DNA of 64,000 bases from Candidatus Latescibacterota bacterium (GTDB lineage Bacteria; Latescibacterota; UBA2968; UBA8231). The notes under the pieces were generated by a model that searched no databases, was not told the origin of the DNA, and worked only from the letters and a program-made list of their open reading frames with translations. The number at the start of each line of letters is the position of its first letter. Within the stretch, counting starts at the first letter, position 1. Positions 29,160 through 45,450 of the stretch are shown here, one piece after another. Both the position numbers and the translations under genes were made by a program. The stretch is taken from positions 672,001-736,000 of the forward strand of contig CBDCSU010000005.1 in NCBI GenBank assembly GCA_965221775.1, in the 5' to 3' direction.

Positions 29160-29243
29160 GGGCGGTGGTACACCGAAAATCAAGAAGGCGAGGGGGCGGG
29201 TGTATCGGTTACTCCCAACGGAGTCTGACTCTCCGCTTCCTGG

Positions 29244-30458
29244 TCATTCACCGACAGCTTCATCGACCGTACTTGCCCACTCTTGTAACTTGCCTGCTAG
29301 TTCATCAGCTACCTTCTCACCTTCCATTGACTTTCTTGTATTTTCCTCAGAGTAGAGATCATATGTTTGTTCAATCAAGGACGAACCGCTATTGGTCCAT
29401 TTCCTCGTACGCTCCCCTAGACGCTCGTCGAATCTACCCTTGAAGTCGTCGACGGGCTCATCGTCCGGGAGGTGAACCTTTATTCTGTCATGCAAGATAC
29501 ACACGCCCACATCCCACCCTGCGCGGTTTGTCTTGGGCCATGCCTGTCTTCTCATTCCCAAGTATATCTCAGGGTCAAGGTAAGAGAAGACGTCCCAGTC
29601 ATGACTCTTGCACCATTCCTCAAGGCGTCTCTCGGTTCCTTTCAGGACTCTCTGGACCAATTTGGTCCTGATTTGAGGCATCGCCTTTTCGACCTCAAGA
29701 GCAAGAGCCAAGTGCTTTCCCTCCGGATCGTTCAGGATGAAGTCTACAGTCGTATCAACAATGACGTTTTGGGCCATGGCTTGGTTCTCCTTGAACATCC
29801 GTTGGATGTATTCCAGCAGGTCCTGCAGAAACCAGCGAACCCGTTCGGCTTCACATTCCCTCCAACACTGCTCGATCCAACCTTCTACAGAACCCCCATT
29901 CCCGATCTTCCGGTATGGCACCGTCCTGGAGAAATCCATCAGGCTTTCTGGTAACTGCGGATCACTGCCGTCGCCGCTCAAATACAGCATCCTGGCGGTT
30001 CCGCCATTCCGAGCTCTGTCTCCCAGATCCTTCAAGTAGTCTTGGACCTGACTCTCGCCTTCCACCGCCCAAGGCTTGTTCTCGATCCCGATCCAGTGGT
30101 TGCCAGGCATCTCAAGGACGATATCGATCCTACGCCTCTCTTGCGTCGAGTACTCAAGGTGGACCGTTCGTACACTTGTGAGGTCTCCGTAGGAGAAGTC
30201 GGGTAACGTCTCTTTCAGGAAAAGGGACAGGAATCGATCACCTTGGCCATGTGCCCCCGAGGGGTCCAGCAGACCGCCAAAGATGCGTGACAGGTGGACT
30301 TCCCGCACACGGCTATCCGAGCTTGAGCGGAAGAAGTCAAGGGTGGAGAACTTCGTCGCCGCTCTCCGATCCATCTCCCTCTGCGCTCGCCTGGCAATCT
30401 CGACCGCCGGTGCGAGACCGGAGAAGAAGGCCGTCAAATGAGTCCTGTGCGCTTCCAT
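29244..30458 (-). CDS. PD-(D/E)XK nuclease family protein (PDDEXK_4-like)
   Basis: ATG 30458; LLDPSGAHGQGD.FL, RRIDI, IGIENK, QVQDY; A/T-richer than the flanks. Confidence 0.85.
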   Translation of the reverse strand: MEAHRTHLTAFFSGLAPAVEIARRAQREMDRRAATKFSTLDFFRSSSDSRVREVHLSRIFGGLLDPSGAHGQGDRFLSLFLKETLPDFSYGDLTSVRTVHLEYSTQERRRIDIVLEMPGNHWIGIENKPWAVEGESQVQDYLKDLGDRARNGGTARMLYLSGDGSDPQLPESLMDFSRTVPYRKIGNGGSVEGWIEQCWRECEAERVRWFLQDLLEYIQRMFKENQAMAQNVIVDTTVDFILNDPEGKHLALALEVEKAMPQIRTKLVQRVLKGTERRLEEWCKSHDWDVFSYLDPEIYLGMRRQAWPKTNRAGWDVGVCILHDRIKVHLPDDEPVDDFKGRFDERLGERTRKWTNSGSSLIEQTYDLYSEENTRKSMEGEKVADELAGKLQEWASTVDEAVGE

Positions 30459-30754
30459 CGACCTACTGACCCTCCCGAAGTACACGAGGAGATTCTGCAA
30501 CTCGGTCTCTCGTGCTGCCCAGCGCCGGCACCTGAGCGGTTCCAAGCACAAATGCATACGCAAAATTAAGGGGGCGCACAACCCAGTGCCAATTCCTGCC
30601 AGCCACCACTCTTCAGACTCCCTGCACCCAAGACACAGAGCCGCTCCCCCGGGATGATGGCCCTCGCCCTCCACCATCGCACTCCCGCGTCAGCAGATCC
30701 CGATAGGATCCTGGATGAGGAAGCGCACTCTCGCGATAGTCGGCGCTGCAAACC

Positions 30755-31207
30755 CTACAGAAAGAAAGTGTCCTCGACCTCGAAGACCGCGCCCTTGGCG
30801 GTCTCGAACCTCAGCTTCATCCTGGCGTTTGTATCGCTGCCGTACTGGGGCACCTCGGCTCCGGCGACGATGATCACATGTCCCCACAGTTCGCCGCCCA
30901 GCAGGGTCTCGTACTTCTTGAAGTCCGACTTCTCCACTTCGTACGACTCCTGGAAGTAGACCCTGTTCGGGTTCTCATAGTCGACGAAGGTCACCCTCAG
31001 CGTGCCGTCGGCCGAGGCGTAGGCCAGGTCCTTGTCCTGGAGGGCATACTGGATCTTGTAGCCGCCGCCCTCCTTGGTGACGAGCACGCGGGTCATCAGG
31101 GCCGGGGTCCCGCCGGGGGCCTCCAGCTCCAGCAGTTTCGACACGCCGCAACCAGCGGTCAGCGACAGCACGGTGAATGCGAGCACTCCCTTGGCAAGTG
31201 AGTTCAT
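30755..31207 (-). CDS. Hypothetical lipoprotein
   Basis: ATG 31207 coupled to the upstream stop; lipobox LTAGC. Confidence 0.75.
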
Positions 31208-31740
31208 CGCGCCACCAGCACGGCCAGGTGGATGAGCATCTCCCCCTGAGAAAACTCCAGCGCTGCGCTCAGCAGGTCCCCGTAGCGATCCTGGATCAGC
31301 AGCGCGCCTTCGACGACGGCGAGGACCGGCGTCTCCAGCTCTTCCGATTCGGGTACGATCGATACGTCCGACACGAGCAGATAGTCGAGGGGCATGTAGA
31401 GCTCGATCTCGGAATCCAGATCGGTGGCCTTGAGGTAGAGAGCCCGGAAGCTCGCCGGGGTGATGCGGTCGTCCTCTATGAGGATGAAGCCGTCCTCGTC
31501 GTAGAGGAAGGCGGTCAGCCGCCGCTCGATGAGGGTCCCTTCTCCGGGCGGGCCCATCTCTCCTTGCGGACCGGCCTCGCCCCGGGGTCCCGCTTCGCCC
31601 TGGGGTCCGGCTTCGCCCCGCGCCCCGGTTTCCCCCGGCGGCCCCTGGGGCCCTGCCGGTCCCATCGGTCCTTCCGGACCCTGGCAGGCGAGAAGGAAGA
31701 GGGCGGATAGAACGAACGTGGAGACAACTCTGCTTCGCAT
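31204..31740 (-). CDS. Collagen-like lipoprotein
   Basis: ATG 31740 with AGGAGG; lipobox LLAC followed by 16 Gly-X-Y triplets. Confidence 0.85.
31537..31680 (-). repeat. Gly-X-Y collagen repeat tract
   Basis: [48 protein letters not shown]. Confidence 0.9.
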
Positions 31741-31772
31741 CTGCGGCACCTCCTGTTTTCGGGTTCGGAGAG

Positions 31773-31810
31773 AACCTGCACGGGAGGTGCGACAGATCGC
31801 GTCGTGGCCT
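31773..31810 (-). promoter_or_regulatory. WYL-type promoter box upstream of the collagen-like lipoprotein
   Basis: Minus strand ACGAC-N7-GTCGC-N10-CAGGTT; 32/38 identical to 45481-45518. Confidence 0.7.
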
Positions 31811-31824
31811 GCCCCAGAACGGCA

Positions 31825-31860
31825 ATCGGCCGGCCCGAGAGTCGACTCGAGCCGGCCGAT
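31825..31860 (-). terminator. Stem-loop downstream of the DUF4377 gene
   Basis: 15-bp stem (one G-U pair on the minus strand), 6-nt loop, no strong U tract. Confidence 0.4.
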
Positions 31861-31888
31861 GGTCACGCGCGGGGGATAAGGGGGCGGA

Positions 31889-32686
31889 TCACTCCTTGAG
31901 CGTGCTCTCCAGCGTCTCCAGCCAGCGGTAGCCGTGGGCGGGGACCTCGGGTGACCCGGTCGTCGTGCCATCAAGGAACATGGTGAATCTCTCGACGCGG
32001 AGGCGGTAGCTGTAGTCGTGCAAGGGATGGAAGCCCACGATCTGACCGCGGAAGGGGGCGCCGTTGACGACTTTGCAGTACCCGGGATAGCCGTCGCCGC
32101 ACTCGACCCGGTGCCGATCCACGGTGATCTCCTCTTCCGCGCCCGATGCTTCGGTCCTCGAGGTGATCTCACTCAGCACGTAGCGGCCATCGGAATACCT
32201 GCCGGCCTCGAGGACGTAGTGGTAGCCGGCTTCGTATTCGAAGCTGGTGATCATGTCGTCGTACGGGGCGCCGTCCACCACCATGCAGAAGTCGTCGCTG
32301 CGGTAGCAGATCACCCGCGCCGGGCCCACGGACAGGGTTGCAAGGGTGGATGGGGCCGGGGTCTTCTCCAGTTGCTCCAGCAGGCGGTATGCGTAGCGGC
32401 CGGCGTCCTGGGGCGGTTCGCCGCCGCCCCAGGGGTCGTACTTGCCGATCCGCAGGCGATAGTCGTACCCGGGCTCGTACTCGAAGCCCTCGATGCCGTC
32501 GTAGAAGAACTCGCCGTCCACCAACATGCAGGACTGCAGGCCCACGCCGTAGCACTTGGCCAGGGTGGGGCCGACGGTCACCTCCCGTGTCTCGAGGTAC
32601 TCGCCTTCGTCCGGGTCCGTCGAACGGTCACAGCCGGCCAGGAGCAGGGCCGGCAGGAGGAGAGGGGTGATGCATCTGGTGGGCAT
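31889..32686 (-). CDS. Lipoprotein with three tandem DUF4377-like domains
   Basis: Lipobox LAGC; three units of C..C.xVxG..I.GF.YE.GY.Y.L. Confidence 0.75.
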
Positions 32687-32862
32687 TGGGGCCTCCTATA
32701 CTCACACTATGACTCTCACGGTGGATCAGGGCAAGCGGATGGCGCCATTTGCCACGACCGCAGGGCAGAGCCCGGTCCGAGGTTCTGTGTCCCTGCAATC
32801 CATGAAGTTCCTTGACCAAGGACCCCGCACGGTGCTGATTCTTCCTCCCCGACCAAGCACAG

Positions 32863-34503
32863 TTGAACCCCTGCCCGCCCTTGGTCCAGGCCTGGCAGAG
32901 AACCGGGATCCTCTCCGTGAAACCAAGCCCTGACCGCTGCCTCCAGGAGAAGCGGAGCATCTCTTCTCCCCCAGCCGAGGTCAGGACGAGGCGCCTGAAG
33001 CTCTACGCCATTGCGGCGGCTTGTCCCTGCCTCGCCTCCCTCTGTGGCTGCACCGACGGGAGCCTGTCTCCATCCCCCGAGTCTCCATACTCGCTGGAGA
33101 TCATCGCACCGGAGCGCGCCAGAGTCGGTGAATCCCTGCCGGTCGTAGTTCGGGCCACGGATGGCGAGGGCCGCCTCGACCCAGGGGTGAATGTCGAGGA
33201 TCGGATCCGCTCGGAAGGAGAGATCGAGGCCATTGCGTTGAAGAAAGGTCTGGGCTCGGCTTCCCTGGTAGCTCGCGACAACGGCACTGGACGCCTCTCC
33301 CTGGAAGTGGCGGGAACATCAAGAGTCGTCTCCATGCCGGATTCGATCCCCGTATTGGAGTACTCGGGACAGCTGGAGCCGGGCGACCATCAATGGGACC
33401 GGTCCAGGGACCGTTACGTTCCCGGACACCTGGTCGTCCCCGCCGGAGCCACCCTGTCCATAGACGAAGGAACGCGCATCCTCCTTGGCCCCCTGGCCAA
33501 TATCACCGTTCACGGCCGCTTGCTCGCCCGCGGAACCCTGAGGCGCCCCATCGTGTACCTGGCCAAGGAGCGGAACAGACCCTGGGGAGGCATCGAGGTG
33601 GACGAGGGAACCGCCGAATTCACCCATACCTTCTTTGTCAACGGCGGGGCAGATGCCGGGAGAGTCTTCGGCCATTCGAACAGTCAGCCCGTTCTCATGG
33701 CTCGGAGGGCGGAGGTAGCCCTGTCGGCCTGCTTCTTCCTCGACAACCCAGGCAAGGCCCTCGGGGCCTGGGAGAGTCACGTCACTGTCGACCGGTGCCT
33801 CATGACACGGTGCGACACCGGGGGGGAATTCTCCAGGAGTGTCGTCCTCATTTCCTCTTCCCACGTCATCGACATTCCCAACGGCGACGGCATCCCCGTG
33901 GATGACGACAATGACGGCCTCTACTTTCACTCCGTCCATCCCCATGATGCCACTCCCTCCATGGTGAGGGACTCCTTTCTCATCACCGGGAAGGACGACG
34001 CCATAGATCACAACGGCGCCCTTCTCGAAGTCCGCAACTGCTGGCTGGAAGGGTTTGCCAATGAGGGGCTGGCCGCATCCAACGCCAATTGGGTCAGGAT
34101 CTTCAACACCGTGGTCAGGGGATGCGGCCAGGGCATCGAAGCGGGCTACGGATCCCCCCGGGTCATGGTCGACCATTGCGTAGTCGTAGAGAACGAGGTG
34201 GGACTGCGCTTCGGAGACTCCTATGACTGGGGAGCCCAGGGCCGGATGGTCGTGTCGAACTCAATCGTCTACGACAATGCCGACAATGTCCTCAACCACG
34301 ACCGGAAGACCGGCCAGCCGGTGCCGGGGGGCATCACCATCACCTACAGCCTGGTGGAAGACGCCGAGCTCGATTCGTCGGCCACGGTCTGGCCGGAGAG
34401 GCCCATCTTCGACGAGGACTTCTTCCTTCTGCCATCCTCGCCAGGCAAGGGCCAAGGTATGGATGGCACGGATATCGGCCTGGTCGATCCCTCGGGTCCC
34501 TGA
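32863..34503 (+). CDS. Right-handed beta-helix protein, probably a lipoprotein (start uncertain, possibly ~32995)
   Basis: Lipobox-like LCGC; PWGGI, DDNDGL, KDDAID, GIEAGYG, SNSIVYDN, SPGKG..DGTDIG. Confidence 0.75.
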   Translation: MNPCPPLVQAWQRTGILSVKPSPDRCLQEKRSISSPPAEVRTRRLKLYAIAAACPCLASLCGCTDGSLSPSPESPYSLEIIAPERARVGESLPVVVRATDGEGRLDPGVNVEDRIRSEGEIEAIALKKGLGSASLVARDNGTGRLSLEVAGTSRVVSMPDSIPVLEYSGQLEPGDHQWDRSRDRYVPGHLVVPAGATLSIDEGTRILLGPLANITVHGRLLARGTLRRPIVYLAKERNRPWGGIEVDEGTAEFTHTFFVNGGADAGRVFGHSNSQPVLMARRAEVALSACFFLDNPGKALGAWESHVTVDRCLMTRCDTGGEFSRSVVLISSSHVIDIPNGDGIPVDDDNDGLYFHSVHPHDATPSMVRDSFLITGKDDAIDHNGALLEVRNCWLEGFANEGLAASNANWVRIFNTVVRGCGQGIEAGYGSPRVMVDHCVVVENEVGLRFGDSYDWGAQGRMVVSNSIVYDNADNVLNHDRKTGQPVPGGITITYSLVEDAELDSSATVWPERPIFDEDFFLLPSSPGKGQGMDGTDIGLVDPSGP

Positions 34504-34521
34504 ATCTCCACGCCCACCCGG

Positions 34522-36762
34522 ATGCCGGTTCGCCTGATTCAACAGCTCCGGGGCAAGGTGGGCCGCCCTGCTTCTTCCGTCCTGGGCGCCTTGCTGGCCC
34601 TTTCCACCAACCTTCCAGCGCCGGCCCAGGAGGGCGGGATCGAGGAGTACCACATAACCTGCGATCCCGACAGCTTCTCCTACATCTACGAGAACTGGAA
34701 GCGCGACCACTACGTCCCGATACACCTCACCCATCGCGGACGGACCTGGCGCGACGCGGAGATGCGAATCCGCGGCGACAGCTCCAGGGAGCTGCCCAAG
34801 AAATCACTCAAGATCCGCTTCCCCTCCACGCCCTTCCATGACGGCAATGACAGGATCAACTTCAACGCCGAATACCTGGACCCCAGCTATCTGCGAACGG
34901 TCCTGACCAGTCGCCTCTTCAGGGACACTCGACACCCGGCCTTCCTGGCCGAACATGCGCGCCTCTTCCTCAACGGAGCCTTTCTCGGCCTCTATGTGAA
35001 GGTTGAGAACATGGATGAGCACTTTCTCAGGCGCAATCGACTGCACAGGGGCGGCAATCTCTACAAGGCGACTCTCGATGGAGCCTGTCTGAGCACGATG
35101 GATGACGCCAACCACCATTGGGAGAAGAAAACCAATGAGAGTGAGGACCGCGAAGACCTGCGCAACTTGATCTTTCTCATCAACGCGGTCCCGGACAAGG
35201 AGTACCTGAACTTCTCGCACAGCTATCTCGCGTACGACGGGATGGTCAATATCATCGCCCTGAACATGCTCCTTTCCAACGGCAGCACCTACTACCACAA
35301 TTACTACATGTTCCATGACATCATGGGCACCGGGAAGTGGTCCATGTTTCCCTGGGACACGGACCGGACCTTCAGCCGCTACGGCTGGAACCTGCCATAC
35401 CATCAAAGCGGCCAGCCCCGGCACCTGCACCGTTGGGACAATCCCTTCCTCGAGCGGGCTCTTCAGGACGAGACGATACTTGGCGACATCAGGAGTCGCA
35501 TTGACCAGTTGAGCCTGACCTGGTTTTCTCCGGGGCACCTCTTCCCCATCATGGACAGCCTGGAGGTCCTCCTCGAGTCCACCATTCCTCTCGACAGGGC
35601 AGACGACGTGGCCGGCCTTGCGCAGTGGAGAAGCCACATGGCGGAGGACCGTGCGTACATCGAATCGCGTCATTCCCGTCTCGAGCGACAGTTCGAGGAT
35701 TGGCCGTCTCCCTTTGGCACCCTTCCCCTGCGCTGGATCGAGGATGACCCCTGGCTGGCGTGGCGGTCCTCCGAAGGGGCCTCCACCTACACCCTCAAGT
35801 ACGGCAAGGATCCGCAGTTCCTGGACAGCGACGTCCGGGTGGCAGAGGGCTTGACGGACACCGCTTTCGCCCTGCCCCCGGGATTGCCCCCAGGACGGTA
35901 CTTCTGGAACGTGGAGGCGATCAACAGTCACGGCTCCATGGTCGCCTTCGACAGCCGATCCACCTTTGCTCTGCCCCGGAGGCCGGTACCGGGTGAGCGC
36001 CCGGTGATGATCAACGAGCTCAACTATCACTCTGCCGACGACTTCGACCCGGGAGACTGGGTGGAATTGCACAACCCCCACGCCCGGTCTCTCGATCTCT
36101 CCGGGTGGTATCTCAAGGACGGCAGGGAAGATCATGTCTTCTTCCTTCCCCGTTCCACCTTCATCGTCGGAAAAGGCTACCTGGTCCTGTGCCAGGAGAA
36201 GGAGGACTTCCTGGCCCTCTTCCCCGAGGTGGAGGCCTGCCTGGGGGGGTGGGACTTCGGCCTCGGGCGCTACGCGGAATCGGTCCGGCTCTTCGACGCC
36301 GGCGGCAACCTTGTCGACTCTCTCACGTACGGCAGCGAGGCTCCCTGGCCGTCCGAAGCCAACGGGACAGGCTCCACCCTGCAACTCGTCGACCCCGGCC
36401 TGGACAACTCCCTCGCAGCCAACTGGGGGTTCTCCGGACCCTACGGGACCCCGGGAGCATCCAATGCTCCCGTCTCCCTGGAGCCGGGAGTGGCCCTGAG
36501 GAGCTATCCCAACCCCTTTGGCCGGTCGGTTACTCTCCTGTTTGCTCTCCAGGAGGGCGCACGATGCAGCGTCGCGATTGTTGACATCCGTGGAGCGGAG
36601 GTGGCCAAGTTGGTGGATGAGTGGAGGCCGGCAGGTCTTCATCAGGTCGACTGGGATGGATACGACGGGGAGGGGAAACGGGCGGCCAGCGGCGTGTATC
36701 TGGCGCGCCTGAGCCTGGCAACGGGAAGTGTCAAGAGCTCCAAGGTGGTCCTGCTGAGGTAG
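34522..36762 (+). CDS. CotH-family kinase + lamin-tail domain + FlgD-Ig C-terminal sorting domain
   Basis: IRGDSSR, KKSLKI, NAEYLDPSYLR, GNLYK, HNYY, PWDTD; INELNY..DWVELHN..GTPG; YPNPF..WDG..SGVY. Confidence 0.9.
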   Translation: MPVRLIQQLRGKVGRPASSVLGALLALSTNLPAPAQEGGIEEYHITCDPDSFSYIYENWKRDHYVPIHLTHRGRTWRDAEMRIRGDSSRELPKKSLKIRFPSTPFHDGNDRINFNAEYLDPSYLRTVLTSRLFRDTRHPAFLAEHARLFLNGAFLGLYVKVENMDEHFLRRNRLHRGGNLYKATLDGACLSTMDDANHHWEKKTNESEDREDLRNLIFLINAVPDKEYLNFSHSYLAYDGMVNIIALNMLLSNGSTYYHNYYMFHDIMGTGKWSMFPWDTDRTFSRYGWNLPYHQSGQPRHLHRWDNPFLERALQDETILGDIRSRIDQLSLTWFSPGHLFPIMDSLEVLLESTIPLDRADDVAGLAQWRSHMAEDRAYIESRHSRLERQFEDWPSPFGTLPLRWIEDDPWLAWRSSEGASTYTLKYGKDPQFLDSDVRVAEGLTDTAFALPPGLPPGRYFWNVEAINSHGSMVAFDSRSTFALPRRPVPGERPVMINELNYHSADDFDPGDWVELHNPHARSLDLSGWYLKDGREDHVFFLPRSTFIVGKGYLVLCQEKEDFLALFPEVEACLGGWDFGLGRYAESVRLFDAGGNLVDSLTYGSEAPWPSEANGTGSTLQLVDPGLDNSLAANWGFSGPYGTPGASNAPVSLEPGVALRSYPNPFGRSVTLLFALQEGARCSVAIVDIRGAEVAKLVDEWRPAGLHQVDWDGYDGEGKRAASGVYLARLSLATGSVKSSKVVLLR

Positions 36763-36864
36763 TGGCCGGCCTCCGGGTGGACGCCAAGGAGGTTCCATGG
36801 TACTCTTGAAGCGCCTTCCCTCCTTCCACGCCATAGCGAGCGGCCCTTAGGGAGTCATTGTCTG

Positions 36865-37545
36865 ATGGATAGCCTGTTGCTCGATTTCGGGACGATCAAG
36901 CTCCACTGGAACATGGTGCTGCTCTCTCTCGTTTTCGCTTTCTGCCTGTCGAGCGTCATCGCCCTTGTGTACGAGTGGACCTTCCAAGGCCTGTCCTGGT
37001 CCCGCGGTCTCATGCAGACCATGGTGCTGGGCAGCATCATCACTTGCCTGCTCATGATCGCCATCGGCGACAATGTGGCACGAGGCATCGGCATTGTCGG
37101 ATCCCTGGCCATCATCCGCTTCCGTACCAACCTTCGCGATCCCCGGGACCTGGTGTTCCTCTTCGCCGCCCTCGGCGCGGGCGTCGCCTGCGGGGTGCAG
37201 AGCTACCTGGCAGCGACCTTCGCAACGGTCCTGTTCTGCATGATCGCCGTAACCATGTACCTGTCTCGATTCGGTACTCGGATGAAGTACGATGGACTCG
37301 TGCGTTTCCAGATCCCGGCGGGACCGACCATTGCGGCCCAGGTGGCCGGGATCCTGCAGGAAATACCGAGGACCTTCGGCCTCGTCACGATGCGGGACGT
37401 CGCCCAGGGCGATCTCGTCGATTGCACCTACCAGGTAAAGCTCTCCGACGAAGCAGACTCCACGCGATTGATCGAGGCCCTCGGGCAGATCGAGGGCATC
37501 CGCGGGTTGTCCTTCATGAACCACACCTCCGCCCTGGAGGTGTAG
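36865..37545 (+). CDS. DUF4956 membrane protein
   Basis: Several TM segments with GIVGSLAIIRFRTNLRDPRD signature plus small C-terminal ACT-like domain. Confidence 0.88.
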   Translation: MDSLLLDFGTIKLHWNMVLLSLVFAFCLSSVIALVYEWTFQGLSWSRGLMQTMVLGSIITCLLMIAIGDNVARGIGIVGSLAIIRFRTNLRDPRDLVFLFAALGAGVACGVQSYLAATFATVLFCMIAVTMYLSRFGTRMKYDGLVRFQIPAGPTIAAQVAGILQEIPRTFGLVTMRDVAQGDLVDCTYQVKLSDEADSTRLIEALGQIEGIRGLSFMNHTSALEV

Positions 37546-37548
37546 TCC

Positions 37549-38574
37549 ATGAAGCGATGGCTGACGAGGAATGCCTTCCATGTTCTGTGGGTGGCGGCCC
37601 TTCTCACCGCAGCCTACGGCTACCGGAGATGGCAGGCCGATCCCTACCTGATCGGCACGGTCGTGGCGGGAGTGCAGTCGGTGGGCGCGCGCGAGGGAGG
37701 CACCATCCAGGAGGTTCTCGTCGTCGTCGGAGAGGAGGTGGCGGCGGGCCAGGTACTCGCTCGCCTGGACGCCTCCGACCTGCAGGCGGAACGCCGGCTC
37801 CGTGCGGAAGAGCTCGCCTCGCTGGAGTCGATCGCCGCTGCCGACCGCCGTCGGTACAGCGTCGAGTACGACCTGCTGCGCCTGCGCCTGTCCGAACAGT
37901 ACGCGGCCGTCCAGGCCGGCGAGGCCGAGCTCGACGCCCTCAGCCGGGAACTCGAGGCACTCGTGTCAGCGGAAAGCGCCGGCCTGGGACACGATCGCGA
38001 GTTGACCCGCATGTCGATTCGCCGCGACGCCCTGGCCCGCTCCGTAGCCGAGCAGTCGGCCCTGATGCGGCCCGAGGTGCTGAGGCTCGACACGGAAGAT
38101 TCGGATGCCTTCGGCGACAGCGTCATGGCCTCCCTTCTCGGCGACCGGGTAGAGCGCCTGCACGAGGTCCGCCAATCGCTCACCCTGATCGATCAGCGCA
38201 TCGAGTACCGGACGATCCGATCGCCCTGCGCGGGTCTTGTCTCCGAGATCCTGGCTCTTCAAGGCAGTACCGTGGAAGCCTTCATCCCCGTCGTCACCGT
38301 GGTGAGCCCCATCGTCAATTCGGTGCAGGTGTACGTTCCCGAGACGGACGACCGGCCGTTGGCCGTGGGACAGGAAGTGGAAGTGATGTCGAAGCGCTCG
38401 AGCCTCTTCGATGGCCGCGGCACGATCGACTTCGTGCATCCGGGGTACTCACCGATGCCGGAGAGGCTCTGGCTCCGCGGGCAGATGTTGTGGGCGAGGA
38501 AGGCCCGAGTGATCCTTGAGCCGGATCACCAACTGCTGCCGGGCGAATCCGTGCGCGTCCGTCTTGTTCGGTAG
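37549..38574 (+). CDS. HlyD-family membrane fusion protein
   Basis: N-terminal TM, VAAGQVLARLD, coiled coil, IRSPCAGLV, LLPGESV. Confidence 0.85.
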   Translation: MKRWLTRNAFHVLWVAALLTAAYGYRRWQADPYLIGTVVAGVQSVGAREGGTIQEVLVVVGEEVAAGQVLARLDASDLQAERRLRAEELASLESIAAADRRRYSVEYDLLRLRLSEQYAAVQAGEAELDALSRELEALVSAESAGLGHDRELTRMSIRRDALARSVAEQSALMRPEVLRLDTEDSDAFGDSVMASLLGDRVERLHEVRQSLTLIDQRIEYRTIRSPCAGLVSEILALQGSTVEAFIPVVTVVSPIVNSVQVYVPETDDRPLAVGQEVEVMSKRSSLFDGRGTIDFVHPGYSPMPERLWLRGQMLWARKARVILEPDHQLLPGESVRVRLVR

Positions 38575-38590
38575 GCGGGAGACGGGCGCC

Positions 38591-39886
38591 GTGAAGTCCG
38601 GCCGGCTCTTCCTCGCCCTGGCCCCTTTCGCCATGCCTCTCTGCACCGCCGCAGCTTCGGCCGAGTCCAGCGCCGAGAGCCCCGGGACTTCGGATGGCGA
38701 GTTGCGGCTTACCATCGAGCAGACGGTCGCCTTGGGCCTGGGCAACAACCCCCGCCTCGGTTCCCTCGACCTCGAGTCCGACATCCTGGCCCACCGCATG
38801 CGCTCTTTCGACTGGGTGGACAATCCCCAGATCCGTGTGCGCAACCTGTCCCATCGGTCCGACGCCGCCCCCTTCGACGAACTCGAGATCGGCCTCCGCT
38901 GGCGTCCTCCCGCCATTGGGGAGGCCAAGGTGCGCCGACAGCGGCGGACCGTTTCCTTCTGGGAGCTCAAGGTGGAGGCCATTCGGCAGCGGCACTGGCT
39001 GGCGTCGCGAGTGCGCCGGTCCTGCGCGGACGTCACCATGTACTCCCAGTTGGCCCGCCTCGCCTCCCAGCGGATTGAAGTCGAGACCCAGCGGATCGCC
39101 CAGATCGAGACGATGGTCGAGGTCGGACGCCGATCGATCGTCTACTTCACCAAGGCCAGGATGGCCGTCGCCGAAGCGCGCCAGAATCACCTTCGGATCC
39201 TGCACGCGCTGGGCGAGGAAAGGCGGAGATTGCGCCGGCTTACCGGGATCACCCGGCCGATCCGGGTCATCTCCGAGCCGGTCCCCGAAATCCTCCTGGA
39301 GGAAGATCAGCTCCTCGAGCTGGCCTTCGACAACCGGCCGGAGATCCGGCTGGCCGAGGAACAGCGACAGCTGGCCCTCGACCGCAAGGCGCTGGAACGC
39401 TGGCGACTGTTGCCGCAACTCTCCTTCCTCGAGGTGTCCCGCCACGTTGAGCGGTCCCGGGACGACTGGCACGAGTGGAGGTTCGGCCTGGAGCTGCCTC
39501 TCTTCAACCGCAATGCGGACAACCTGGCCGGCCTCTCCCTGGCCGTGTCGGGGAGCGAGCTCGGCGTCCTCGGCATTCGGGAGCGGATTACGGACGAAGT
39601 CCGGGAAACACTCTCCGACTACACCGAGGCATTGCTCGCGCGCAACCTCGCCCGCCGAGAGGGAGAGGCTCTCATCGAAGCCGCCTCCCGCGTCATCTCC
39701 GGCACACACGATCACGCCACCGTGCCCTCGGATGAAATCCTGGAACTCGAGCGAATGATCATGGCTGCCCGGGTGGCCATCACCGAGAGCGAGCGGGATC
39801 TGGCCCACGCTCTCTACTTCCTCCATTACGAGCTGGGCCTCGGAGATCCCGAGGTTCTCCTCCGGGAGCCCGGCCATGGCGAGTGA
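38591..39886 (+). CDS. TolC-family outer membrane protein
   Basis: GTG 38591; signal peptide; LTIEQ..GNNP, RPEI, LELPLFNRN. Confidence 0.8.
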   Translation: MKSGRLFLALAPFAMPLCTAAASAESSAESPGTSDGELRLTIEQTVALGLGNNPRLGSLDLESDILAHRMRSFDWVDNPQIRVRNLSHRSDAAPFDELEIGLRWRPPAIGEAKVRRQRRTVSFWELKVEAIRQRHWLASRVRRSCADVTMYSQLARLASQRIEVETQRIAQIETMVEVGRRSIVYFTKARMAVAEARQNHLRILHALGEERRRLRRLTGITRPIRVISEPVPEILLEEDQLLELAFDNRPEIRLAEEQRQLALDRKALERWRLLPQLSFLEVSRHVERSRDDWHEWRFGLELPLFNRNADNLAGLSLAVSGSELGVLGIRERITDEVRETLSDYTEALLARNLARREGEALIEAASRVISGTHDHATVPSDEILELERMIMAARVAITESERDLAHALYFLHYELGLGDPEVLLREPGHGE

Positions 39887-40646
39887 GCCAGCCGCGGCCC
39901 ACCGCTACGAGCTCAAGTACACGGTCACCGAGCACCAGGCGGCCGAGATTCGCGACTTCATTCGCCCCCTTTTCTCGCTCGACGGCAACGTTCCCCCCGA
40001 GCAGGGCAGCTACACCGTCAACAGTGTCTACATGGATACTCCCGGCCTGCGCTTCTACCACGACACTAGGCTCCGCCAGTTGCTGCGCTTCAAACCCCGG
40101 ATCCGCTACTACGGAACGAAGGAAGTGGACTCCCTCACCCTGGAGGTCAAGTACCGCCACCACCGCACCGTCTGGAAGGCCCGGCAGAGAATCGCAACGA
40201 CTCAGTGGCCCCAGGTGCTCGAGACCACCAGGAGCGACCGCATCTCTCCGAGATTCGGGACCTTGCCGGAATCCTTCGTCGAGGTACACCACCTGTACGG
40301 CACGGAGCCGGTGCTTCATCTGCGTTACCATCGCGAGCCCTTTGTGAGCGAAGTGGACACCTATGGACGCATCACCTTTGACCGCGCCATGCGCTACCGT
40401 CTCCTGCGTGGTTCCCATGACATCTTGTGCCACGATGGTGAGTTGACCTACTACGACGACGCCGTTACCGCCCAGTGGGGCGAATCCCCCGTGGTCCTGG
40501 AAATCAAGACGGAATCCCTCGTTCCCTTCTGGGCCCTGGATCTCATCAAGCGCTTCTCTCTCGTGCAGCGGGGATACTCCAAGTACCGTTACGTCATCGA
40601 CCATTGTCTCGAGCGAGCCGGAAGCGGCAACGACATGGGGCGTTGA
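39876..40646 (+). CDS. VTC-domain (CYTH tunnel) polyphosphate polymerase-like protein
   Basis: RYELKY, NSVYMDT, KPRIRYY, LEVK, YHREPF, RITFD, VLEIK, YSKY. Confidence 0.9.
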   Translation: MASEPAAAHRYELKYTVTEHQAAEIRDFIRPLFSLDGNVPPEQGSYTVNSVYMDTPGLRFYHDTRLRQLLRFKPRIRYYGTKEVDSLTLEVKYRHHRTVWKARQRIATTQWPQVLETTRSDRISPRFGTLPESFVEVHHLYGTEPVLHLRYHREPFVSEVDTYGRITFDRAMRYRLLRGSHDILCHDGELTYYDDAVTAQWGESPVVLEIKTESLVPFWALDLIKRFSLVQRGYSKYRYVIDHCLERAGSGNDMGR

Positions 40647-40659
40647 GGCGAGGCTCAAG

Positions 40660-43317
40660 GTGGCAAGATTGTGCGGCAATCTCCCTGACGGAAGGCATCG
40701 GGCTCGCGCCTTCTTCTTTTTCCTCACTCTTCAAGCCTCCATCCTTCCAGCTGCTGACCCACAACTCAGACTCCCGGTATATCATCTGACTATCGATCCC
40801 GCCGACCATGACGCCCTGGAAGAGTCCCCTTACAGCGACACCCGGTATCCCGCTCAGTTCACCTTCGGAGGACAGACCCACGAGTGCCGGGTACGATTCA
40901 GAGGCGCCACGGCCCGCAAGTACGACAAGAAGAGCTGGAAAGTCTGGTTCGAGGACCGCCGCAATCCGCTCGGAGTGAGGGAGATCAACCTCAATGCCGA
41001 GTATACCGATCTCTCCTTGATGCGCAACGCCCTGGCCATGGAGCTATTCGAGTCCCTGGGGCATCCAGCCCCTGCTACCCGGCACGTCAGCCTGATGGTC
41101 AACAAGCAGTTCAAGGGCGTCTTCGTTCACGTGGAGGAGATGGACCAGGATTTCCTGGAACGTTTCAACCTGGAGCCCGGCCACCTCTTCAAGTCCGAGA
41201 ACCACGGGGGCAACACGGCGCCGTTGCTGGACTTCGACAACTACGCCGCCTCCTGGAACAAGAAGGTAGGCGATGAGTCGGACTACACGGATCTGCAGCG
41301 CCTGTTCAATCAGCTGCTCTACCTGTCGCCCGAGGATCTGGAGGCGCGGCTCCCACATCTGGTGAACGTAGACGGCGCTCTACGCTACTTCGCCATCGCC
41401 TATGCGATCTCCAGCTTCGACTCGGTAACGAAGAATACCCTGCTCTATTTCAACCCGGAGGGACGGCTGGATCAGATGATGCCGTGGGATCATGACGCCT
41501 CTTTCGGCAACCATTGGACGGGGGAGTACCGATCCTATTTCGAGACCACCTACTTGTACTTCTCTTTCCGGTATCACCTTCTGTTCCAGAGGTTGATGGA
41601 GTACGACAGCTTCCGTCATGCCTTCTGGGAGATGGTCCATACGGTCATAGGCCGCGGTTTCCGTTCGTTGGAGGCTGAGATCGACTCGACGTACGAGACG
41701 ATCAGGTTCGACGTGTACCAGGATGACTCCAAGTTGGGCACGAATGACGACTTCGACCGGGAGATCTCCCGCCTCAAAGGGTTTCTGAGCGCAAGGAGGT
41801 CCTTTCTCACCGACTTTACCTTCTTTGAGAAGGAGCCCTTGTCGGATCTGTACTGCTCCACTCCCTTCCCCGGAGACCGTGGGGACACGGACGGCGTGGT
41901 TTTTCGAGCCCGTTCCCCCGTGCCCCAATCAGTATTCGTCAGGTACACCACGGACCTGACTTCCTACAGAACGCCGGGCCTGGAAATCACCGTGAGGAAG
42001 CTCGCCTTGTTCGATGACGGCCATCACGATGATCTGCAGGCGGGAGACGGGCTATACGGAAACCGCCTCGTGCTGCCGGCGGGGTTTACCGGCCTTGTCC
42101 CCTATGCCTTCGGGGCCGGAGAGTACAGCTATCCACCCAACGGGCTGTACTATGTGAATCACCGGGCCTCGAAGAGTTTTGCCCTGAATGCAAGCCGCGC
42201 CACCAGGCGGGACTATGAAGACTTGCGGATTGGAGAGGTCTATGCCCTGCGAGAGGCCTTCTTCGTCGACCTGGTCAATGAGGGCGAGGTGCCGCTGGAC
42301 CTTGCCTACTGCAGTTTTCAATCTGGTGACTATTCCAACCGTTTCATGTTTCCCCCGGAGACTCGTCTTGCCCCGGGGGACAGCCTGGTTCTCTCCTCGA
42401 ACAGAGACGTTGCCAAGGCCCTCTTTCCCCTCACCTCGGTCATTGGTAATCTCTTCTACGCCATTTCCCCCGGCGATACGATGAAGGTGCTGGATCCTTC
42501 CCTGGCAGCCCTGACATCTCGCGTGAACCGGGCTTACGGCAAGATCCATCTTCCCTCTCCCGCAATCGTCATGAACGAGATCAACTATCATTCCAGGGAT
42601 GACCTGGATACGGGGGATTGGGTCGAGCTCTACAATTCGGGTGACTACCCGGCCGATCTCTCCGGTTGGTCCTTCAAGGACGGAAACGACCAGCATTCCT
42701 TCGTGTTGCCCGATCCCACTCTTCTTCAGCCCCGGGGATTCCTGGTGTTGTGTCAGGATCGGAGGGCCTTGGAACTCATCTCCTAGGTCCCTTGTATCGG
42801 AGACTTCGACTTCGGATTGAGGAACAGCGGAGAGCTGATTCGCCTGTACGACCGTCATGGGTTGCTGGTCGATTCGGTCGTCTATGGGGATAGTCCACCG
42901 TGGCCGGAAGAGGCAGATGGCGACGGGCCCACACTGGAGCTGCGCCACCACGATCTGGACAACGCCAACCCCGAGAGCTGGATGGCCTCCCTCTCTGCGG
43001 GGGGGACCCCGGGCGCGATCAACAGTGCCGAGAACCCTCACGGTACGGTGCCCTTCACTCTCTCGGAGTCGACTCCCAATCCGTTCTCCTACACGGTCGC
43101 CTTCGACCTCGACCTCGGCAGGAATGCGCAGGTCACCCTTGCGGTCCATAACACCCTTGGCCAGCGTGAGGAGGTTCTGGTCGACAGGCTCGTCCCCGCC
43201 GGACGTAGCCACTTCACCTGGACCCCCGGGGAGAGGGGGGCTGGAGTCTACCTCTTCGCCCTTGAGTTGGACGGGCGGCTGGAAGCGGTGCGGAAGGCCG
43301 CATACCTGAGCAAGTGA
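40660..43317 (+). pseudogene. Second CotH kinase + choice-of-anchor-X-like motif + lamin-tail domains + C-terminal sorting domain, interrupted by in-frame TAG at 42784-42786
   Basis: FRGATAR, KKSWK, NAEYTD, SFD....KN, PWDHD; LFDDG..D..AGDGLY. ORF 42817-43317 is in the same frame and completes the lamin-tail domain. Confidence 0.8.
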
Positions 43318-43371
43318 GTCCGGCGGCGCAGGTCTCGACGCGCCGGGCCGGCCGCTTGGGAATTCCCCGCC

Positions 43372-45450
43372 CTATGATCCGAATCCGAGGGTGCCGCGGA
43401 GGCCAGGCTTGGCCTCGCACTCGGCGCGCAGCAATCCTGCCAATCCCTCGGGATCGCGCAGGTGGCCGAGGATCTCCGCCTTGCGGCGCACCACCGCGAA
43501 GTCCCCCGGCGTCAGGTTGACGAGGGCCTCGACCTCCGGCGGAGCTTCGAGGTCGAAGAAGGCGCGGAAGGCCGCTCTCGACTGGACGGGGGTGAGGTAG
43601 TCCAGGGAGACCTTGAAGGTGAAGCGCCGCAGGGTGGCGGGGTCGAGGTGCTCGCCGAAGTTGGTGGTGCACGCGAAGGGCAGGGGATGGCTCTCCATCC
43701 AGGTCAGCATCTCGTTGACCTGGCTCACCTCCCACGAGCGCACGGCGCCGCGGCGGTCGGCCAGCAGCGAGTCGGCCTCGTCGAAGACGAGGATCGACTC
43801 CTCGGCGCGGGCCTCGGCGAAGGCGGCGGCGATCTGCTGCTCGGTCCCCCCCACCCACATCGACATCAGGTCGGAGGCCCGCTTCTGGGTGACCTGGAGT
43901 CCAAGGCGTTCGGCCAGGTAGCGGACGAAGGCGCTCTTGCCGGTGCCGGGCGGGCCCTGCAGGCAGAGGGAGAACCGCTTGTCCCCGGTTGTTTCCAAGC
44001 GTCCGGCGAGCCCGGCGGGGTCCACGTCGGCCTGGATCAGACCGAGGTCGAACCTCTCCGGCGCTCCCTGCGCCGCGGGGGGTCTGTCGCCCGAGATCAC
44101 CCGGGACAGGCTGCGCACGCCGCGGCGCACGGCCGCCAGATCGCCCCCGCACAGGCCGGCCGCGGCCACGGCCCCGGAGGCCATGCCGGGCGCCATGTCG
44201 AACTCCCGCGCCAAGGAGCGCGCGTCATCTTCCGTCGCCTCGATGCCGTGACGGTCCAACTCGCGACTCCAGATTCGCGCCCGGGTCCGGCACGGCGGCG
44301 GGCTGAGCTCCAGGGCGAAGGTCATGCGGCGCAGGACGGTGGGACAGGTCTCCCGGGCGGAGTTCGAGGTCCACAAGGTGGGCACCGGCGCGCCTTCGAG
44401 GAGGCGGTTCATGTAGACCTTGGAACCCCGTGCCCGGAGCTTGGAGGAGCCGGCGGGGTGGAACGGCATCCAGCCCCCGTCCGGGTCGGAGAGCAGGTCC
44501 TCCATCTCGTCGAAGAGGAGGAGCGACCCCTTGCCACCTGCCAGCAGGCGCTGGGCGAAGCGCAGGTCCTGGAGGCGCTCGTGCCGGGCGGGCTCGTCGC
44601 CGTCCTCATCGGCCTCGCCGACATTGTAGAGGTTGGCCCCGGTCCGGGCGGCCAAGGTCCTGCAGAACTCGCTCTTGCCGGTCCCCGGCGGCCCGTAGAC
44701 CAGGACGTTCACCCCCCGCGCGCCGGAGCGCAGGGCGCCCTTCACGACCTCTTCGATATGGTCGCGCGCCTCCGCCACGTGATCGAAGTCCGACCACTCC
44801 AGCTCTCCCGGCGGCGCCGAGTCGAGCAGCAGGCCGCGTACATCCAGACCGCTTTCGTCGGGGAGGTGGACCAGCCGGTGCAGCCTCTTCACCGGCGCAA
44901 GGTCGCCGTCGTAGTCGACGGAGACGAGGCCGGCCTTCATGAGCGGCGCATCCGCCGTGAAGCGGGTCAGGAAGGCGCCGGAAGACAGGCCCGAGAGGTA
45001 GGCCAGGTAGGGGTTGGTGACGTTGAGAACCAACCTGTGGCGGCGGAGACCATCACCGACGGCATCGATCAGTGACTCCAGGGCCGGCTGCGAGCGGTAG
45101 CGCAACAACAACTCGAGGATGGCCACGTCCTCGGGCGCCAGGTTCATCTCCCGGCCGAGAAGGCGGAGCCGCTGCGCCGTCCGGTCGGGCGGCGCCCCTT
45201 CGCAAGCGGAGTGCTTCCGTTCGAGAGCCTTCCTCAGCCGCTTCCATTTCCGGGCGGTGAGTTTCTTCTCGAAGGGGTTCTCCTCGTCCTCCTGCCCTTG
45301 CCCACCGTCGTCGAGATCGAGCAGGTCCAGGTTCTCGCTGACCCACTCGGCCAGGCTCTTCGCGCCCGGAGTCCCGTGGTGAAGTCGCGAGGCGGCGTTG
45401 CTGAGGTAGGAGAACAGGAGCTGACGTTCGCAGGCGCTGAGCATGGGCAT
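43372..45450 (-). CDS. Double-domain AAA+ ATPase
   Basis: Two GPPGTGKS Walker A motifs; FDEMED and FDEAD Walker B; LDPATLRRF. Confidence 0.93.
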   Translation of the reverse strand: MPMLSACERQLLFSYLSNAASRLHHGTPGAKSLAEWVSENLDLLDLDDGGQGQEDEENPFEKKLTARKWKRLRKALERKHSACEGAPPDRTAQRLRLLGREMNLAPEDVAILELLLRYRSQPALESLIDAVGDGLRRHRLVLNVTNPYLAYLSGLSSGAFLTRFTADAPLMKAGLVSVDYDGDLAPVKRLHRLVHLPDESGLDVRGLLLDSAPPGELEWSDFDHVAEARDHIEEVVKGALRSGARGVNVLVYGPPGTGKSEFCRTLAARTGANLYNVGEADEDGDEPARHERLQDLRFAQRLLAGGKGSLLLFDEMEDLLSDPDGGWMPFHPAGSSKLRARGSKVYMNRLLEGAPVPTLWTSNSARETCPTVLRRMTFALELSPPPCRTRARIWSRELDRHGIEATEDDARSLAREFDMAPGMASGAVAAAGLCGGDLAAVRRGVRSLSRVISGDRPPAAQGAPERFDLGLIQADVDPAGLAGRLETTGDKRFSLCLQGPPGTGKSAFVRYLAERLGLQVTQKRASDLMSMWVGGTEQQIAAAFAEARAEESILVFDEADSLLADRRGAVRSWEVSQVNEMLTWMESHPLPFACTTNFGEHLDPATLRRFTFKVSLDYLTPVQSRAAFRAFFDLEAPPEVEALVNLTPGDFAVVRRKAEILGHLRDPEGLAGLLRAECEAKPGLRGTLGFGS

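Follow-up and report, generated by a model that had tools for sequence, protein, structure and literature searches.

A linked DUF4956, periplasmic adaptor, outer-membrane duct and VTC-enzyme gene unit of diderm bacteria: a candidate system for polyphosphate synthesis and export

Introduction

The closest described relatives of the gene cluster reported here, which lies in a 64,000-nucleotide stretch of DNA (the window; positions 672,001 to 736,000 of contig CBDCSU010000005.1) from a Candidatus Latescibacterota bacterium, are the eukaryotic VTC complex and a bacterial gene triad for VTC, DUF4956 and CotH proteins. Cryo-electron microscopy of the yeast VTC complex, as far as the accessible text of the preprint goes, lists K200, R264, R266, K281, Y359, R361, S457 and K458 as needed for polyphosphate in cells, identifies E426 of Vtc4 as a Mn2+ ligand and notes that K458 of Vtc4 is Ile or Leu in the inactive Vtc2/3 (bioRxiv 10.1101/2023.01.27.525886). 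In Gram-positive bacteria, CotH, polyphosphate-polymerase-like and DUF4956 genes are contiguous with pel loci (bioRxiv 10.1101/768473; 10.1101/2024.04.20.589940), and a table for NELoc-2 of Clostridium perfringens holds VTC, membrane protein and CotH genes (PMC2879425). The co-occurrence of the three families, pointed out in an earlier note on this DNA, was therefore already in print, as uncharacterised accessory genes in the available portions of these sources. One of them supposes that the polyphosphate is kept in the cytoplasm, again in the portion available (bioRxiv 10.1101/2024.04.20.589940).

The cluster in the window combines these families with a periplasmic adaptor and a TolC-family outer-membrane duct. 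No paper that we found, judged by the accessible parts of each, describes this four-gene unit in its adaptor-duct form or any activity of it. Here we show that DUF4956, adaptor, duct and VTC genes form a core that recurs over many phyla. We propose that polyphosphate synthesis by the VTC enzyme is coupled to export through DUF4956, the adaptor and the duct, which is the most likely of the mechanisms considered and has, in our judgement, an even chance of being right.

The seven-gene cluster in the window

Seven co-oriented genes occupy positions 32863-43317 on the plus strand, as the earlier note had laid them out; families were assigned with Pfam.

32863..34503, plus strand: beta-helix protein, probable lipoprotein, start uncertain (Beta_helix, 33 bits; 'LASLCGC' after a hydrophobic stretch)
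34522..36762, plus strand: CotH1, with signal peptide, CotH kinase-like domain, LTD and C-terminal sorting domain (CotH, 174 bits; LTD; FlgD_ig)
36865..37545, plus strand: DUF4956 inner-membrane protein (41.5 bits against a cut-off of 30.6)
37549..38574, plus strand: periplasmic adaptor (membrane fusion protein) of EmrA/HlyD type (HlyD_3/HlyD_D23; partial NCBIfam matches)
38516..39886, plus strand: TolC-family outer-membrane duct (OEP, 50.3 bits against a cut-off of 22, in two stretches)
39876..40646, plus strand: VTC-domain tunnel enzyme, Vtc4-like (VTC, 102.9 bits against a cut-off of 23)
40660..43317, plus strand: CotH2, with signal peptide, CotH kinase domain, LTDs and sorting domain, interrupted here (CotH, 200 bits; LTD)
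42784..42786, plus strand: in-frame TAG inside CotH2 (CAG in related strains)

The genes are separated, in cluster order, by 18, 102, 3, -59, -11 and 13 bases. The true start of the beta-helix gene is probably later than the one listed, because the lipobox-like 'LASLCGC' lies about 55 residues past the first possible start.

A strictly linked four-gene core

Searching the whole genome for the VTC family revealed a second locus, on the minus strand of contig C4 (about 705431-711899; L003:6923-13562). Its order of DUF4956, adaptor, duct, VTC and CotH-LTD genes is that of the window, and the two copies are 86% (DUF4956), 76% (adaptor), 66% (duct), 74% (VTC) and 58% (CotH) identical. In the place of CotH1, upstream, this locus encodes a 1227-residue BNR/sortilin/Ig protein with the shared C-terminal sorting tail. 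All DUF4956, VTC and CotH genes of the genome are confined to these two loci. The 66% figure for the duct applies from residue 21 on, and the true duct start is probably downstream of 38516.

Linkage beyond this genome was surveyed by scanning one genome per species with a DUF4956 alignment, which yielded 69 loci, all from metagenome-assembled genomes; six-frame open reading frames (ORFs) at the loci were classified with purpose-built hidden Markov models (HMMs). The adaptor gene lay immediately 3' of DUF4956 in 68 of the 69, the duct came next in 61 and VTC was in the cluster in 56, counts that describe one subfamily, not DUF4956 proteins at large, since the loci were chosen through a DUF4956 motif. 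The single locus without the adjacent adaptor (L023) has a 2.9-kb LTD-gene insertion followed by adaptor, duct and VTC. A contig end cut seven of the loci before the duct and 11 before VTC; L062 has no duct, and no VTC gene was found in L068 and L071, which are the most divergent loci (DUF4956 identity 35-37%). The earlier note had staked its proposal on conservation of the HlyD- and TolC-type genes with the cluster, and the survey bears this out.

By record title the 69 loci belong to Myxococcota/Deltaproteobacteria (22), KSB1 (6), Latescibacterota (5), Neomarinimicrobiota (5), Gemmatimonad (3), Calditrichota (2), Ignavibacteria (2), Cytophagia, Spirochaetales, Deferribacteres and Proteobacteria (1 each), with 20 unlabelled. 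Across these phyla DUF4956 is 55-93% identical in all except six loci, where identity is 35-51%. The best 120 of 485 DUF4956 homologues are 58-91% identical, and the named ones among them span several phyla. Among 14 control genomes, VTC and DUF4956 were present together in the same three. The gene arrangement is far beyond chance, given its paralogous copy in this genome and the 69 loci that share it elsewhere.

No pump gene is linked to the core

The earlier note had also counted no ABC, RND or MFS gene in the cluster and only one multi-pass inner-membrane protein, DUF4956. Both observations held: all seven ORFs fall in other Pfam families, and DUF4956 is the sole cluster protein with several hydrophobic helices. 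The flanking genes (a TonB-dependent receptor, a PD-(D/E)XK protein, an unassigned ORF, a DUF4377 protein and an opposite-strand AAA ATPase) include none of ABC, RND or MFS kind by Pfam.

The same picture emerged within 7 kb of the core at 71 loci, where no ORF of at least 100 residues carried a Walker A motif together with an LSGGQ-type signature. ORFs with at least five hydrophobic segments by the criterion applied were absent from the window and numbered 20 near the core elsewhere, spread over 18 loci. Thirteen of these 20 were scanned with Pfam and proved mutually unrelated: sodium:solute symporters (SSF), OPT, a Na/H exchanger, one opposite-strand AcrB and three MacB-type proteins, the rest being YfhO-like, TPR and DUF6785 proteins and two without a Pfam match. 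The MacB-type genes, at three of the 71 loci, lie some kilobases from the core, and the copy in L022 adjoins its own adaptor. The earlier note had allowed for a partner transporter encoded elsewhere; at the 71 loci, the 7 kb to either side of the core contain no conserved pump gene. These results confirm the four-gene core as a real, widespread and strictly linked unit without a linked ordinary pump.

All-against-all clustering of the ORFs from the 71 loci listed 30 recurrent clusters, of which eight (0-7) were examined. The most widespread, clusters 0-4, comprise the core families, shadow ORFs and CotH/LTD-type proteins. Cluster 5 lies over or beside the DUF4956 gene, cluster 6 is a two-component pair and cluster 7 overlies CotH genes on the opposite strand, the last two in Myxococcota-type loci. 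At loci of this type, a divergent HAMP histidine kinase and an OmpR-type regulator are encoded just upstream of DUF4956 (L050:7578-9919, L067:7465-9764 and L051:6941-9252, all minus strand), and large PPDK_N (dikinase-type) proteins lie near some of them (L048:14946-18155, L029:2232-4379).

The VTC enzyme keeps the Vtc4 catalytic set

A profile of 64 bacterial VTC proteins matched Vtc4 (3g3q) at E 3.4e-22 and Vtc2/Vtc3 at 1e-10 to 1e-12. Residues K14, R75, R77, K92, Y151, R153, E209, S235 and K236 of the window enzyme align with K200, R264, R266, K281, Y359, R361, E426, S457 and K458 of the yeast complex; in the 64 sequences eight of the nine are invariant and S235 is kept in at least 90%. In hydrolytic tunnel enzymes, by contrast with Vtc4, where these positions are basic, four Glu residues (E2, E4, E90 and E171 of AtTTM3) form a second metal site, according to the accessible text of Martinez et al. 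(PMC4641920). The first and last positions of this acidic patch are R10 and K211 in the window enzyme, both basic as in Vtc4, and the second is Glu (E12). The sequence thus favors a polyphosphate polymerase for the window VTC protein without proving one, since a Vtc4-like tunnel centre is no guarantee of polymerase activity.

PPK1 and PPK2 are encoded elsewhere in the genome, so the two VTC loci come on top of its ordinary polyphosphate metabolism. An 839-residue protein in the representative library (P0110) joins adaptor, phytase-like domain and VTC in one frame and may be a real fusion or a read-through error. It was not used as evidence, as no membrane helix separates the periplasmic portion from the cytoplasmic one.

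DUF4956, adaptor and duct

In its AF2 model (pLDDT 78), DUF4956 forms a short hairpin at the N-terminus, then five helices and, at the C-terminus, a domain of beta-alpha-beta-beta-alpha-beta topology. This last domain (residues 136-222) is ACT-like, matching TM1266 with Z 11.4 and the C-domains of MgtC (7qa5 and 2lqj) with Z 8.3-8.6; Foldseek with the model returned 7qa5 at E 4e-3, and the Pfam MgtC family scored 20.8 bits, under its cut-off of 31.4. Invariant residues lie in the third helix and the next loop (A72-R73-G74-I75-G76-I77-V78-G79, R85, F86, R87 and D95). By the positive-inside rule, the invariant basic loop IRFRTNLRDPRD and the C-domain probably face the cytoplasm. A complex prediction for DUF4956 with VTC scored 0.01 and is evidence in neither direction. 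An apparent DUF4956-adaptor fusion (P0037) was rejected as a frameshift artefact, because its junction resembles the +1 frame of the DUF4956 C-terminus and it comes from a 2-kb contig.

The adaptor model (pLDDT 85) starts with a membrane helix and has a helical hairpin, each arm about 70 residues long, besides lipoyl and beta-barrel domains. Its best match in the PDB was EmrA (4tko, E 2.4e-18), together with EmrA of EmrAB-TolC, followed by adaptors of MacA and AcrA/MexA type. EmrA-type adaptors serve pumps without large periplasmic domains, and the likeness therefore fits a small partner such as DUF4956. In 41 of the 69 loci the adaptor is about 690 residues long through an extra C-terminal periplasmic domain of about 300 residues (e.g., L012:10682-12712, L018:10670-12754, L047:10670-12754), which gave weak matches to DUF6929 and 'esterase-like activity of phytase'; this domain was not found in the genome of the window. 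The duct reached 27 bits with the NCBIfam TolC model, whose cut-off is 225.

Surface proteins: CotH, LTD and type IX secretion

Both window CotH proteins carry signal peptides, and the CotH tail matches FlgD_ig (36.4 bits, cut-off 27) and falls just under the cut-off of TIGR04183 (22.6 against 23). Copies of this tail domain occur at over 60 sites of the genome. The genome also encodes type IX machinery, with two PorU proteins over cut-off and SprA (SprA_N, 117 bits). Given a type IX secretion system and a sorting tail, CotH export needs neither the adaptor nor the duct. Genome-wide, more than 48 ORFs end in a shared sorting domain of about 80 residues, a large type IX secretome.

CotH1 and CotH2 align to 5jd9 at E 3e-22 and E 1e-40, respectively. 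Bacillus subtilis CotH has a catalytic D228 and a metal-binding D251, in the accessible part of the source (PMC7821199). With residue numbers transferred from the 5jd9 chain, assuming an offset of +4, CotH2 keeps both Asp residues (FDS..KN, PWDHD), and CotH1 has Ser at the D228 equivalent and keeps PWDTD.

The CotH part of the earlier note's reading came out weaker than the note had taken it to be. Of the 69 loci, only 27 showed a CotH kinase domain; in addition, CotH1 has Ser for Asp and CotH2 is truncated here. At the seven loci tested from the FCB type (KSB1, Neomarinimicrobiota, Calditrichota, Ignavibacteria and Cytophagia), the gene after VTC in every case encodes a protein of about 690 residues with three LTD domains and no kinase, ending in a type IX tail in six of the seven:

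L021:6419-8536, three-LTD protein
L025:10101-12155, three-LTD protein
L035:14877-16949, three-LTD protein
L047:15232-17286, three-LTD protein
L059:9359-11437, three-LTD protein
L039:15824-17899, three-LTD protein
L036:10923-13139, three-LTD protein

These seven proteins have isoelectric points of 4.0-4.8, and that of the CotH1 LTD is 4.5. The idea that LTD domains bind a polyanion was dropped as unsupported, the domains being strongly acidic.

VTC-DUF4956 pairs of the Bacteroidota phylum

In a sample of the Bacteroidota phylum, to which L021 belongs, DUF4956 was present in 87 of 151 genomes (85 of 149 without two unpublished genomes). At 28 of the best loci VTC adjoins DUF4956 in 25 and CotH in the other three; none of the 28 has an adaptor of the window type between VTC and DUF4956. 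In a FastTree tree of DUF4956, the 69 adaptor-linked rows split from 24 Bacteroidota-type rows with support 99, a separation that is partly built in, the 69 having been chosen by motif.

At five loci an unassigned protein of 350-378 residues, with an anchor helix, a coiled coil and an 'APFxG' motif, precedes VTC-DUF4956:

L103:7441-8562, 350-378-residue protein
L104:8217-9269, 350-378-residue protein
L105:2529-3638, minus strand, 350-378-residue protein
L106:4192-5325, minus strand, 350-378-residue protein
L107:7955-9022, 350-378-residue protein

The adaptor HMM matched two of the five (E 8e-7 and 2e-5), and Pfam matched none at 1e-4. By its sequence this protein resembles an adaptor, though a highly divergent one, and the order of the genes differs.

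The CotH2 stop codon and the setting of the cluster

Position 42784 is T in the window and in run X1, which is probably the window's own source, and C, giving CAG (Gln), in runs X5, X6 and X7, which come from three other studies and have contigs 95-99% alike. The in-frame TAG is therefore strain-specific or an error of the data set, and CotH2 is normally whole. Both CotH2 pieces align to one intact paralogue of 895 residues, the CotH of the second locus on contig C4, with 58-60% identity. Near-identical DNA is present in contigs of runs labelled sponge metagenome.

The window is G+C-rich; the G+C content is 0.698 for the genome and 0.625 for the cluster. Between 28000 and 52000 of the window it falls to 0.59-0.68, against 0.69-0.75 on either side, and this stretch, which may be an acquired island, also includes two minus-strand genes, one for a PD-(D/E)XK protein (29244-30677) and one for a double AAA ATPase that weakly matches the anti-phage protein IteA (43372-45450). 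A search for promoters and terminators gave no signal above shuffled sequence.

Discussion

We propose that DUF4956, the EmrA-like adaptor, the TolC-like duct and the VTC enzyme make up one envelope-spanning unit. The Vtc4-like tunnel enzyme would act in the cytoplasm, at the inner face of the membrane, and make polyphosphate from ATP. The growing chain would enter a DUF4956 oligomer, with the basic loop facing the cytoplasm, and leave through the adaptor and the duct, so that polymer growth would take the place of an ABC, RND or MFS pump as the driving force. The beta-helix, CotH and LTD proteins would be exported separately, by means of Sec signal peptides, to which a type IX sorting domain is added in this genome, and at the cell surface would work on the product or together with it. 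In this scheme we infer the polymerase activity, the nature of the cargo, DUF4956 as channel and as the partner of the adaptor, and every role given to CotH and LTD proteins. The polymerase and export proposal of the earlier note is thus partly supported, by the retained Vtc4 catalytic set, the retained HlyD/TolC linkage and the lack of a linked pump, and has lost ground in its CotH part.

Several observations weigh against this mechanism. DUF4956 has an MgtC-like architecture, judged from its model; a search of PDB sequences with DUF4956 gave no match at E up to 10, and no relation to the Vtc1-type channel was detectable in fold searches that covered essentially the C-domain alone and barely probed the membrane domain. 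MgtC is not known to act as a channel. Many diderm Bacteroidota have VTC-DUF4956 without an adaptor or duct of the window type, and outer-membrane export is therefore not inherent to the pair; the linkage counts themselves belong to a motif-defined subfamily. The acidity of the LTD proteins argues against their binding a polyanion by simple electrostatics. We found no report of an activity for any bacterial VTC protein. Finally, E12 is invariant (64 of 64 sequences) at a position that is a Glu of the second metal site in hydrolytic enzymes and Thr in Vtc4, so that the enzyme may instead be a hydrolase or catalyse another reaction; and AtTTM3, in the accessible text of its description, has the tunnel-centre residues of Vtc4 and yet is only a tripolyphosphatase (PMC4641920).

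Some of these observations feed the best of the alternatives, which we consider unlikely: the four proteins would be one unit with another cargo, an ion or a small phosphorylated compound, and VTC would be a tri- or polyphosphatase, a nucleotide-using regulator or an energy coupler. E12 would fit this, lying where hydrolytic enzymes bind a water-activating metal, as would the AtTTM3 precedent of a Vtc4-like tunnel centre that can hydrolyse, the weak MgtC match of DUF4956 and the likeness of its C-domain to 7qa5 and 2lqj. The remainder of the active site argues the other way. K236, the K458 equivalent, is invariant, and the corresponding Lys is dispensable for hydrolysis by AtTTM3 (PMC4641920) and essential in Vtc4 (bioRxiv 10.1101/2023.01.27.525886), in the portions of these sources that were accessible. 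The VTC profile fits Vtc4 about ten orders of magnitude better than Vtc2/3, and R10 and K211 replace acidic-patch residues.

A glycan-centred explanation, which we hold to be somewhat less likely again, starts from other gene contexts. Here CotH-type enzymes would phosphorylate an exopolysaccharide or another surface polymer, with polyphosphate or something else as the source of phosphate, and the adaptor and duct would export that polymer or its precursor rather than free polyphosphate. At a Bacteroidota-phylum locus (L109:2589-14116), DUF4956, VTC and CotH, the last with fused beta-helix domains, end an operon of genes for a Wzc-like protein, a sugar transferase, GT2, a 2-hydroxyacid dehydrogenase and phosphoenolpyruvate mutase, a context that points to surface-polysaccharide or phosphonate chemistry. 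Other loci of the phylum carry Wzy_C, PMT_2, Cthe_2159 and ECF sigma genes. In Gram-positives, as cited above, pel genes directly adjoin the triad, and a beta-helix protein opens the window cluster. Nevertheless, the annotated genes at 26196-45450 of the window showed neither a glycosyltransferase nor a gene for polysaccharide export, no glycan family appeared in the eight of 30 recurrent clusters examined, and the strictly conserved partners are VTC and DUF4956 rather than glycan enzymes.

It is very improbable that the adaptor and duct serve an ordinary pump encoded elsewhere and that their position between DUF4956 and VTC is mechanistically meaningless: TolC-type ducts are often common to several pumps and a MacB-type gene lies within 7 kb of the core at three loci, but these are just three of 71, the L022 copy having its own adaptor, the DUF4956-adaptor-duct-VTC order is kept over many phyla with 3-base spacing or overlaps, and the narrow adaptor subfamily (44 matches at 50% identity or above, then a fall to 31%) travels with DUF4956.

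If polyphosphate synthesis is indeed coupled to export by this unit, the unit would be a first in three respects: in having a bacterial VTC-type polyphosphate polymerase that is active, in offering polyphosphate a dedicated exit from a cell, and in being a tripartite envelope system that runs on polymerisation instead of an ABC, RND or MFS pump. The widespread DUF4956, bacterial VTC and non-spore CotH families would each gain a function, and the mechanism would bear on extracellular phosphorus chemistry. A further step, which we regard as doubtful, is that in many diderm phyla the exported polyphosphate serves as phosphoryl donor or as a cation-loaded scaffold for surface CotH enzymes that phosphorylate proteins or glycans. 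The use of polyphosphate by CotH is speculative; were it true, such a donor would solve the absence of ATP outside the cell for these enzymes.

Among known systems, the triads of Gram-positive pel loci and of C. perfringens NELoc-2 likewise encode CotH, VTC and DUF4956-type families together; in the accessible descriptions they differ in having monoderm hosts, no adaptor or duct and a place within polysaccharide loci. EmrAB-TolC (4tko, 8zal, 8zar) shares with the window an adaptor built of membrane helix, lipoyl domain, long hairpin and beta-barrel, with no membrane-proximal domain, and a TolC-family duct. Unlike EmrAB-TolC, the window locus has DUF4956 and a cytoplasmic polymerase-like enzyme in place of an MFS, ABC or RND pump, and 41 of the 69 related loci have the additional C-terminal adaptor domain. 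MgtC/SapB proteins resemble DUF4956 in combining a hydrophobic N-terminal domain of about five helices with a C-terminal ACT-like domain, whereas DUF4956 scores below the Pfam MgtC cut-off (20.8 against 31.4 bits). MgtC is known for its roles in regulation and virulence and is not known to belong to an export system. The eukaryotic VTC complex (Vtc4/Vtc3/Vtc1; 3g3q, 7ytj, 8i6v) differs from the window system in several ways: by Pfam the window cluster lacks both an SPX domain and three-helix channel subunits of Vtc1 type, its enzyme is a separate soluble protein with E12 in place of a Vtc4 Thr, the partner DUF4956 is unrelated in sequence and has an MgtC-like fold, and an adaptor and outer-membrane duct are added. 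What the two have in common is a Vtc4-type tunnel domain with the full catalytic set, encoded next to a small multi-helix membrane protein, and a proposed coupling of synthesis to translocation.

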